From Escherichia coli (GTDB taxonomy: Bacteria; Pseudomonadota; Gammaproteobacteria; Enterobacterales; Enterobacteriaceae), in NCBI RefSeq assembly GCF_048403405.1, contig NZ_CP183129.1: a stretch of 64,000 nucleotides of DNA; one strand, given 5' to 3'. This document shows positions 5,000-50,605 of this stretch, one piece after another. The notes beneath the pieces are model-generated. The model saw nothing but the letters and a program-made list of their open reading frames with translations, did no database searches and was not told where the DNA came from. The translations under genes were made by a program, and so were the position numbers. Each line of letters opens with the position of its first letter. Position 1 is the stretch's first letter.

Positions 5000-5362
5000 A
5001 TTAATATTAAATCGGATTATTTTTAGCGCTGAATGTGAAATTTAAATAAAAAGGACTCTTCCATGAGTCAAAATCCTTGAAATCTTAAGGGTAAGATAAA
5101 AGGTCATTAGACAGAATGACACGTTTTATTAATAAATAAAGCTATTGTTTCATTCGTGTGTTTTTCTTTACAAAAGTAATCCTTGCTATGGTTGGTTAAT
5201 CATGCGTTAATGGTGTTCTGGTTTGTTACAAAATTATCTGAAGCAGTCATTGTTATAATTTTATTATTTGTACCTCTTGAGATTTCCTTGTTGGTTTTTC
5301 TCTCTGATATTTTTTTTCGGACCATTCTGCCCAAGGGCTAACTTCTTCAAAAGGTAATAATG

Positions 5363-5575
5363 ATGTCTAACAAAATGACTGGTTTAGTGAAATGGTTTAA
5401 CCCTGAAAAAGGTTTTGGTTTCATCACGCCGAAAGATGGTAGCAAAGATGTGTTTGTCCATTTCTCAGCTATTCAGAGCAACGATTTCAAAACGTTAACT
5501 GAGAATCAGGAAGTCGAATTTGGTATTGAGAACGGACCTAAAGGCCCCGCGGCTGTTCATGTTGTGGCACTTTGA
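5363..5575 (+). CDS. cspI: cold-shock protein, CspI-like
   Basis: 70 aa, [43 protein letters not shown]...; long AT-rich leader. Confidence 0.85.
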
Positions 5576-5775
5576 GGTAGATAATATTACAAACCATATT
5601 CACTTTAGATGCCCGTGTTGCCATGGTTCTCAGTATAGAACATCATCTTTTGATGTTTCTGACAGGAATCCTTTCGGGGCAAAATGTATCTTTTGTAAAT
5701 CAATGATGATTACATTTGATAATATTTCACAATACTTAAATGTTAGCCGTCTATCGTTAGATTTAAGAAAGTGAA

Positions 5776-5801
5776 AATGAAGGCTCCTTCGGGAGCTTTT
5801 T
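5776..5801 (+). terminator. rho-independent terminator downstream of cspI
   Basis: gaaggctccttcgggagcttttttt. Confidence 0.55.
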
Positions 5802-5846
5802 TTCTTAGTGTCTAGTCGATGGATACTCACATAATACGGTAACATT

Positions 5847-6077
5847 ATGAAAAAAATAATAGTTTTTTTTAACTCTGAACCAGCAATGGTAGTGCCAGTG
5901 ATGACCGGAGTTAACACCATCATGCGTGAATATCCAAATGGCGAAACAACACACCTCACTGTAATGGCTGCAGGGTTTCCATCTCTGACCGGAGATCATA
6001 AAATCATTTATGTAGCAGCGGATCGACATGTAACTTCAGAAGAAATTCTGGAAGCAGCAATGAGACTCTTGAATTGA
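5847..6077 (+). CDS. hypothetical small protein (76 aa) between cspI and gnsB
   Basis: ORF with upstream purine-rich stretch; occupies the ynfN position of K-12 Qin; identity not confirmed. Confidence 0.45.
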   Translation: MKKIIVFFNSEPAMVVPVMTGVNTIMREYPNGETTHLTVMAAGFPSLTGDHKIIYVAADRHVTSEEILEAAMRLLN

Positions 6078-6249
6078 TTTGATTCTAATGCATTGATAAT
6101 AAATGATAATCATCTTTATCTGTTTGTGTGAAATTTAGACCGTCGTATGTTGATTATTGCGATGTTTCATCTTATCTTTTATACGTTTGCTCCATATAAT
6201 TGACACTACTGTGTACCAGGAAAGTCATAACAGACTAAAAGAGGAAATG

Positions 6250-6423
6250 ATGAACATTGAAGAGTTAAAAACAAAAACAGAAGCAGATATTTCTGAATAT
6301 ATAACAAAAAAAATCATTGAGCTTAAGAAAAAGACCGGGAAAGAAGTTACCAGTATCCAGTTTACTGCACGGGAAAAAATGACTGGTCTTGAAAGCTATG
6401 ATATCAAGATTGATTTAATCTAG
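6250..6423 (+). CDS. gnsB: GnsA/GnsB-family small protein
   Basis: 57 aa, MNIEELKTKTEADISEYITKKIIELKKKTGKEVTSIQFTAREKMTGLESYDIKIDLI; close to recalled GnsB. Confidence 0.8.
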   Translation: MNIEELKTKTEADISEYITKKIIELKKKTGKEVTSIQFTAREKMTGLESYDIKIDLI

Positions 6424-6716
6424 TCTGTTTAGTATTAGCATCAATTTCTCATCAGATGCTATTCAACAATACAAATTACCCATAAACCTCGTTTTTACGG
6501 GGTTTTGTTATATTTAAACATTACCGAATAGGTATAAATCTCGATTGTCGATGGTATTGGTTGTGTGACAATACCTAGTCTTTCCGGTATGCCTGATGAG
6601 AATACAAACGACAGATTATGTAAGGGAAACGCGCTGAATCTTTAACTCTTTCATGCTGAGTGATTTGACGTTATATTTTTAGCCGTAAGTGAAGAGCAAA
6701 CGCATGGAGCGACAAA

Positions 6717-6923
6717 ATGCATAAAGATCAATACACTGATGCCCCCTCCCAGGAGCAGGTTCGTGTAAAAACTATGCTTAATAGCACCATTTCGATGGGT
6801 TACCCGGATGTTGTAATTGCATGTATAGAACATCAAGTGTCTCTGGAAGCATTCAGGGCAATTGAGGCCGCGTTAGTAAAGCACGATAAGAATACGAAGG
6901 ATTATTCCCTGGTGGTTGACTGA
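6717..6923 (+). CDS. hypothetical protein (68 aa)
   Basis: ATG preceded by GGAG; no family recognised. Confidence 0.35.
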
Positions 6924-7286
6924 TCACCATAACTGCTAACCATTCTGACCATTTCACAAGTGACAGAGTCAATATCGTATTCTGTCACTGTCAGGCTAAT
7001 ACAGCAATGCAATTCAACTACAGCAATGCCTCGTATTTAGGTGAATTTACAATATCGTCCAGTTCGGATGCCGGCTGCATTTCTGAAGATAAGGCATTTC
7101 GGTTCTCGTATTTTCCCCTCATGCTCGTCAGTCCTGCGCGTAGTAAGAAACAGGACACTCACACTAATTTGTGTGGGCATGCTGTGATGTCCTTCTGAAT
7201 TATCCCCATGCCATTATGTAAAGCTCTGTTAAAGATGCTCGTCACGGTTGTCAGGCTGTCGGGTCCTCCCAGTGGGGGGCCCTGCC

Positions 7287-7306
7287 ACGGGGCGGGAGCG
7301 TCGCGG
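7287..7306. promoter_or_regulatory. cohesive-end site (cosN-like) for terminase
   Basis: ACGGGGCGGGAGCGTCGCGG closely parallels lambda cosN context ACGGGGCGGCGACCTCGCGG; lies ~185 bp upstream of the terminase small subunit start, as in lambda. Confidence 0.65.
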
Positions 7307-7473
7307 AAAAAGGCTAGTTTTTGCATTTCCATGGCGGCGGCAGCATGTTTGGTAATTTATTGATAATTAAAAGTTATTTCCCTTTTCACCTGTACAATAT
7401 TTTTTTCTTCCTGTCATTAGACCAGTTTGCAATTAATTGAAATATATAAATAAACCTGATTTTCACCTGCCAG

Positions 7474-8013
7474 ATGGAGTTGCTTATGTCAAATGTGAGC
7501 GGGATCGGTGATGCTTATTACTGGAGTGTTTTTAAAATCGCCGAGGCCTTTGGGCTTCACCGGGACACAGTAAAAAAACGGCTCCTCGCGGCCAACACTC
7601 CTGTGGCTGCGACTGTCAGGGGGAACCCCGTTTACGCCCTGCAGCATGTCGGGCCCGCCCTGTTTAGTGTGAAGCATGAGGCAGCAGACTCTGTTCATGA
7701 TCCATCCCGTATGGAGCCGAAAGAGAGAAAGGACTGGTACCAGTCTGAAAATGAAAGGATCAAGCTGGAAAAGGAGCAGCGAAAACTCATCCCAGTTGAT
7801 GAAGTAGTCATCGTCTATTCGTCCATGAGAAAGGCTGTCGTCCAGGTTCTGGAGACAATTCCGGATGTTCTTGAACGCGATTGCGCTCTGACTCCTCAGG
7901 CCGTCGGCGTTGTACAGCAGGCCATTGATGACCTGCGATACACTCTTCAGGAAAAATCCTACGAGGCTTGTGCTGCTGAATTAATTCCTGATGAGGAAGG
8001 AGAGAGTCTCTAG
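7474..8013 (+). CDS. terminase small subunit
   Basis: 179 aa; N-terminal helix-turn-helix (SVFKIAEAFGLHRDTVKKRL); immediately upstream of the large subunit and downstream of cos. Confidence 0.7.
   Translation: MELLMSNVSGIGDAYYWSVFKIAEAFGLHRDTVKKRLLAANTPVAATVRGNPVYALQHVGPALFSVKHEAADSVHDPSRMEPKERKDWYQSENERIKLEKEQRKLIPVDEVVIVYSSMRKAVVQVLETIPDVLERDCALTPQAVGVVQQAIDDLRYTLQEKSYEACAAELIPDEEGESL

Positions 8014-47464: not shown

Positions 47465-50605
<3,141 letters not shown>

Follow-up and report, generated by a model that had tools for sequence, protein, structure and literature searches.

A ybcW homologue ahead of a predicted lambda-type cos site at the right end of an Escherichia coli prophage

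Genes and reading frames between gnsB and cos

We examined positions 6430-7250 of a 64,000-nucleotide stretch of Escherichia coli DNA, the whole of which we call the window. This interval lies between gnsB on its left (6250..6423, + strand; Pfam GnsAB_toxin, E 2.2e-33; annotated gnsB by RefSeq in the identical locus L001) and, on its right, a gene for a DUF1441-type small terminase subunit (7486..8013, + strand; Pfam DUF1441, E 1.7e-44, and RefSeq annotation), whose homologue in phage Tritos is annotated as terminase small subunit. The open reading frame listing and Pfam matches place a large terminase gene downstream of the interval as well. The initial annotation had described two short ORFs of 68 and 63 aa followed by a GC-rich cos region, and both ORFs are present, at 6717-6923 and 7007-7198 on the + strand, each beginning with ATG. 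The cos region was likewise borne out: GC content rises from about 0.3-0.45 to 0.60-0.65 at 7200-7349, this peak being cos, and the ends of the Tritos genome map there. Our listing of all ORFs of at least 30 aa in the region added several shorter frames and an antisense 61-aa ORF (6651-6836) within the interval, and no family was found for any of them.

A profile search of the 68-aa ORF, which the initial annotation had proposed as a check, returned a full-length match to PHROG 657 (E 4.6e-48), with residues 1-68 aligned to profile positions 1-68. Along its full 68 residues the product shares 79% identity with K-12 YbcW (E 3e-40), encoded in the cryptic prophage DLP12 (b0559, UniProt YBCW_ECOLI), and it is also 79% identical to the product of the lambda gene lambdap79 (NP_597782); at the DNA level the ybcW region is 83% identical to lambda 47,629-48,090, which contains lambdap79. 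RefSeq lists the protein as WP_000548593.1, a "hypothetical protein", and the exact 68-aa sequence is present on at least 1000 public contigs. Searches of the PDB by sequence gave 0 matches at E up to 10, and against PADLOC anti-phage defence profiles the window YbcW had no match while the K-12 allele had one insignificant match (E 0.017). At least 80% of window positions 6100-7500, with the gnsB-ybcW-cos arrangement, is carried by 717 of 5426 complete E. coli genomes, and the complete 821-bp interval is found, 98% identical, in the phages HannyBb (PP925841) and mEp460_ev081 (LR597641).

The reading frame at 6717-6923 bears the marks of selection on a protein. We extracted ybcW from 85 loci, which yielded 16 alleles, and the full frame is kept in 14 of these. 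When the window allele was compared with the lambda or Tritos alleles, codons 18-68, which form the core, gave a dN/dS of 0.15-0.17, and the N-terminal tail (codons 2-17) gave a dN/dS of about 1-1.5. The ORF is also intact in the distant relatives P0146 (56% identity) and P0208 (42%), with a pS of 0.76-0.78 and a pN of 0.30-0.36, synonymous sites being saturated between these two and the window allele. Together, these findings demonstrate that ybcW is a real gene and encodes a protein whose helical core is under purifying selection, and it is the sole real gene of the interval; such selection implies that either the phage or the lysogen benefits from keeping YbcW. Two rare damaged or extended ybcW alleles were seen among the 85 loci, both in IMG/VR sequences, one with a 3' frameshift (L020) and one in which the stop codon is changed to TGG (L044).

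The 63-aa ORF (7007..7198, + strand) is spurious and not a gene. It has no Pfam or NCBIfam match and only a partial, weak match to a PHROG (E 0.0019). In loci 99.5% identical to the window its ATG reads CTG, and in Tritos-type loci of 93% identity the frame is destroyed by a +1 indel and several stops; because neither start codon nor frame is conserved in close relatives, we regard it as a chance ORF. Separately, we noted an exact 11-nt direct repeat, TACAGCAATGC, present in two copies with 19-nt spacing at window positions 7000-7029; the first copy holds the ATG of the 63-aa ORF, and relatives read CTGCAAT at that place.

These results bear on the reading offered in the initial annotation, namely that the interval contains novel morons of unrecognised families that replace the cargo of the K-12 prophage Qin. 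Two of its premises hold. Neither ORF matches a Pfam or NCBIfam model, and gene content does differ from that of Qin, which carries ydfO and ynfO and no ybcW, whereas the window has ybcW and no DUF1398 or DUF3950 gene. The statement that the ORFs belong to no recognised family nevertheless fails for the 68-aa ORF once PHROG 657, K-12 YbcW and lambdap79 are considered, and the 63-aa ORF has no conserved frame. The arrangement, moreover, is common in E. coli and found in isolated phages, and with its 68-aa ORF identified as a YbcW homologue the interval can no longer be called unassigned. The initial annotation had also named homology to known small Qin proteins as the result that would speak against novelty, and what was found is essentially of that kind: a known K-12 prophage protein, but the YbcW of DLP12 and not one of Qin. 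The YbcW homology essentially refutes the novel-moron explanation, which we consider scarcely credible. A named, if uncharacterised, gene thus replaces the unassigned interval, and a false ORF is removed from the annotation.

Hairpins, spacer and the cos site

The ybcW gene is preceded by a leader homologous to that of lambda (6559..6716, + strand, defined by alignment). Its Shine-Dalgarno GGAG (6706-6709) sits 7 nt from the ATG and shows no variation among the aligned sequences. A scan of the + strand found no consensus sigma-70 promoter for ybcW. Further upstream, a terminator scan identified a hairpin with a T-run after gnsB (6484..6505), terminator-like on both strands, with a fold of -11 kcal/mol (z -2.4); it aligns with Tritos, and in Tritos and Qin the same hairpin sits between the convergent gnsB and ybcV/ydfO.

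Downstream of the gene, 36 nt after the ybcW stop, lies an inverted repeat, AGTGACAGA-N13-TCTGTCACT (6959..6989, + strand), with a 9-bp perfect stem. Of 12 sequence variants compared, 11 have the same stem while loop and flanks vary, and the twelfth (L080) has an A-to-G change in the stem that remains pairable as G-U. In the ybcW mRNA the repeat would probably form a 3' hairpin. We considered it by eye as a CRP, LexA or IHF site and rejected all three, the spacing and sequence not fitting.

A different explanation is that one of the non-coding parts, 6430-6716 or 6924-7260, specifies an RNA, either a small RNA of the prophage or a cis-regulatory element, that includes the 6959-6989 hairpin. 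The conserved stem amid varying flanks and loop, the retained pairing in L080 and a stable local fold (-14.9 kcal/mol, z -3.7) would fit such an RNA, and sRNAs are known in prophage accessory regions (PMC4104026; Pas sRNA preprint). However, in lambda the hairpin has no unusual stability (z -0.33), the fold of the spacer as a whole is no better than shuffles (z -0.85), and the + strand offers neither a promoter-like site nor a T-run after the hairpin. No compensatory changes occur across the 12 variants; because the stem does not vary, covariation lends no support to an RNA role. An Rfam cmscan covering 5000-8000, with matches accepted up to E 1, gave none within 6430-7250, and a tRNA scan of the region placed none in the interval. 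AgvB and the Pas sRNAs were considered as matches for the interval and rejected: the genes that flank these loci, which for the Pas sRNAs are Q antiterminator, RusA and holin/lysozyme, put them in the early-to-lysis part of a prophage, which is not the part found here. We therefore judge an RNA gene or element in the interval to be unlikely, and retain the 3' hairpin of the ybcW mRNA as the probable reading of the repeat. Outside the interval, the same cmscan reported a cspA thermoregulator at 5205-5621 (112.8 bits, E 2.2e-29), which spans both the leader and the coding sequence of cspI in the prophage, and one chance match at 5702-5814.

The spacer from ybcW to cos (6924..7260) is non-coding, mosaic and prone to recombination, and some 300 bp of it follow the hairpin and lead into cosQ and cosN. 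The ends of blastn segments place breakpoints at about 7068 against lambda/DLP12 and at about 7140 against the Nu1-type locus L017. Relative to Tritos, the spacer contains indels of +1, +1 and +8, which break every ORF in 6924-7289 on both strands, and since these indels are not divisible by three we take the spacer to be non-coding. Two minus-strand candidates with partial PHROG matches were rejected on this ground, one at 7018-7158 (phrog_4035) and one at 7159-7332 (phrog_35283) that spans cosN; we attribute both to automatic annotation of conserved DNA. In the HannyBb spacer, automatic annotation places several small ORFs, which lack conservation.

The cos site could be placed to the base. 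The linear record of Tritos ends ...CCCTGCCACG, corresponding to window 7280-7289, and starts GGGCGGGAGCGTCGCGG, identical to the window from 7290 onward; the right end of lambda, ...CAGGTTACG, aligns to the same place as the Tritos end. Because the Tritos genome ends align to 7289/7290, we assign the 12-nt cohesive-end sequence of cosN, GGGCGGGAGCGT, to 7290..7301 (+ strand); its lambda counterpart is GGGCGGCGACCT. A GGGTCCT heptamer at 7261..7267 (+ strand) precedes cosN by 22 nt, matching the place of cosQ in lambda, and is presumably cosQ itself. The right edge set by the initial annotation (7250) fell about 10 bp short of it. The heptamer occurs 23 nt before the right end of lambda and 20-23 nt from cosN in Tritos and the satellite-like locus L007, and 32 related loci have it at a distance of 20-22 nt ahead of cosN. 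Among lambda-like phages a 7-bp cosQ is highly conserved (PMC4669245).

Compared with lambda cos, the left half of the 12-nt overhang is identical, CG dinucleotides are present at both nick sites, and the heptamer spacing is 22 nt in the window versus 23 nt in lambda. The window overhang differs at positions 7, 8, 9 and 11, within the tolerant right half; the Gifsy-1 overhang differs at positions 8, 9 and 11, also in that half (PMC4669245). On the cosB side the window is unrelated to lambda, as expected with a DUF1441 small terminase. The window cos is thus a predicted lambda-type site, a Gifsy-1-like variant, and the placement of cosQ and cosN to the base aids the definition of prophage ends and packaging units. 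Collectively, these data make it very probable that 6430-7250 is the final stretch of a lambdoid prophage genome ahead of its packaging site.

Expression and possible role of YbcW

Upstream of ybcW, blastn segment ends define a junction at 6551..6558 at which the ybcV/ydfO (DUF1398) cassette is absent: Qin/Tritos-like homology stops at 6558 and lambda/DLP12-like homology begins at 6551. A 588-bp piece of Tritos (L003 2606-3193), containing ybcV, is missing from the window, and the flanks of the cassette show imperfect short microhomology (GATGGT versus AATAGT). Consistent with this, tblastn with K-12 YbcV found no match in the window and matches in 70 of the 85 ybcW loci; tblastn with YlcI (DUF3950) also found none in the window, and among the 85 loci ylcI is present only in those of Nu1 type.

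In K-12, an FNR site and a PdhR site are located in the ybcV/ybcW intergenic region, ybcW mRNA drops 8.9-fold in a pdhR mutant and is induced by Hha, and ybcW and the convergent ylcI have been reported as an overlapping-transcript pair. By alignment, the missing 588-bp piece includes both reported sites, so any lysogenic control that they give in DLP12 is unavailable to the window copy, whose expression in the lysogen would probably be weaker or differently controlled. If the DLP12 FNR site is a class II activator site of ybcW, its -10 element, TAGTAT, would fall exactly on the deletion junction, which in the window has TGGTAT (6551-6580 versus L006 5690-5760); the window copy may have lost that FNR-linked -10 promoter element. 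The gene shares the orientation of the late operon and lies just upstream of cos and the terminase genes, a position that would expose it to antiterminated late transcription reading through the gnsB terminator.

The literature assigns no function to any member of the YbcW family. An AF2 model comprises three helices with a pLDDT of 78.7 and a core above 90, from a shallow alignment of 15 sequences, and searches with this model returned no informative structural relative. With a pI of 4.7-5.5, YbcW would be a small acidic cytoplasmic three-helix bundle, most plausibly one that binds another protein. In lambda, dCas12a knock-down of lambdap79 lowered plating about 10^4-fold, though the gene is reported non-essential, and the authors explain mismatches of this sort by polar effects on essential genes further downstream (PMC10695390). 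Applied to lambdap79, this general explanation suits a gene that the late transcript carries immediately before Nu1 and A. YbcW would be an accessory function, dispensable for lambda plaque formation, and we propose with low confidence that it may be a small accessory protein, produced late in infection, that acts by binding other proteins.

The place of ybcW directly ahead of cos raised the question of whether YbcW is linked to packaging, acting at cos or on terminase, for example in cosQ termination. Such a role would explain the site of the gene, which is the last late-orientation gene before cos in every locus that reaches cos, Nu1-type and DUF1441-type alike, and in a satellite-like element of Salmonella a 42%-identical homologue lies 48 bp upstream of a GGGTCCT-cosN arrangement and a Nu1-like gene. 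Against this, YbcW occurs in only 40 of 50,697 phage records, all Escherichia lambdoid or lambda-derived, far below what would be expected if all lambda-type cos phages carried it, and K-12 Qin has a Nu1-type terminase gene without ybcW. The lambda literature, moreover, reports lambdap79 as non-essential (cited in PMC10695390), and the satellite homologue, P0208, proved to be a singleton cluster. Species-representative genomes, scanned with alignment A3, held no YbcW relative, and the linkage to cos could be simple hitch-hiking. We accordingly rate a packaging role as very unlikely, and the linkage of ybcW to cos is more simply explained by its position in a recombining module.

A further idea is that YbcW, instead of being passive cargo, is a small late protein tied to cos or to the switch from lysis-gene to head-gene expression, or else a protein-binding inhibitor of a host factor such as a defence or stress protein. 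This is suggested because purifying selection acts on a gene beside cosQ that is found with two unrelated small-terminase types, and because one satellite-like Salmonella element also keeps the gene despite having little genome space to spare. We think an active role of this kind improbable, and continue to favour the late-made accessory factor.

P0146 and P0208 were the sole true distant relatives in a search of 1.84 billion representative proteins, and the matches listed by a profile search from YbcW alignment A2 were close relatives only. Most other apparently divergent matches (P0129-P0236) were rejected as they come from error-ridden contigs of about 3.5 kb that look like nanopore lambda control DNA, and one 92-aa match (P0042) labelled as the plant Dovyalis caffra presumably reflects lambda contamination of the assembly. 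The record MW057783.1, "Campylobacter phage CJLB-4" (48,361 bp), matches at the identity and relative position of lambda, has YbcW annotated, and looks like lambda. The 42%-identical ybcW-like gene is carried on a contig of Salmonella enterica serovar Glostrup (L007/L008, 5001-5480) by a satellite-like element ordered DUF4222, DUF927 primase, PerC, a lambda E-like capsid gene, a D-like decoration gene and then the ybcW-like gene, which is followed after 48 bp by GGGTCCT and then by a cosN-like site and the Nu1-like gene. The gene for P0146 (L009/L010, 273-464) adjoins a block of AlpA, Zn-ribbon and replication-protein-like genes with the look of a second integrative satellite, and lies 272 bp from the contig end.

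Comparison with Qin, DLP12, lambda and Tritos

Across the 85 loci, ybcW is the constant element, always in late-operon orientation between the lysis/cargo genes and cos. To its left stands bor or gnsB, ybcV and ylcI are each present or absent, and on the right the small terminase is of either the Nu1 or the DUF1441 type. The window combines these parts as gnsB, ybcW, cos and the DUF1441 small terminase. Both the content and the gene order of the interval are already known, and it is an ordinary lambda-like prophage right end that has a ybcW homologue, lacks the DUF1398 cassette and continues into a cos/terminase module of Gifsy-like type.

K-12 Qin, the prophage with which the interval had been compared, reads in the orientation of gnsB as gnsB, ydfO (DUF1398, opposite strand), ynfO (DUF3950, opposite strand) and nohA; ybcW is absent. 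Its left part, comprising ynfN, gnsB and the terminator, is shared with the window at 87% identity as far as 6558, and the overall place in the prophage is alike, but the terminase type differs. Phage Tritos (OV696610), with the order gnsB, ybcV (opposite strand), ybcW and genome end, has ybcW, spacer and cos in common with the window, yet retains the ybcV cassette.

DLP12 and lambda share the order bor, ybcV (opposite strand), ybcW, ylcI (opposite strand) and a Nu1-type small terminase. In the lambda reference NC_001416, we observed at about 48,112-48,306 on the minus strand an ORF whose product matches K-12 YlcI (DUF3950) at 100% identity across 64 aa; it is convergent with lambdap79 (L002 ~2713-2907) and unannotated in the RefSeq lambda record. 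The window gene agrees with DLP12 YbcW and lambdap79 in its length of 68 aa, its strand relative to the late operon, its site between the lysis/cargo genes and cos, and its conserved leader, Shine-Dalgarno sequence and downstream hairpin. It differs from them in its diverged N-terminal 17 residues, for which dN/dS is about 1-1.5, and in its surroundings: the divergent partner ybcV, the FNR and PdhR sites and the convergent ylcI are all absent from the window, and the cos and terminase downstream of its ybcW are of the DUF1441/Gifsy-like type and not the Nu1 type.
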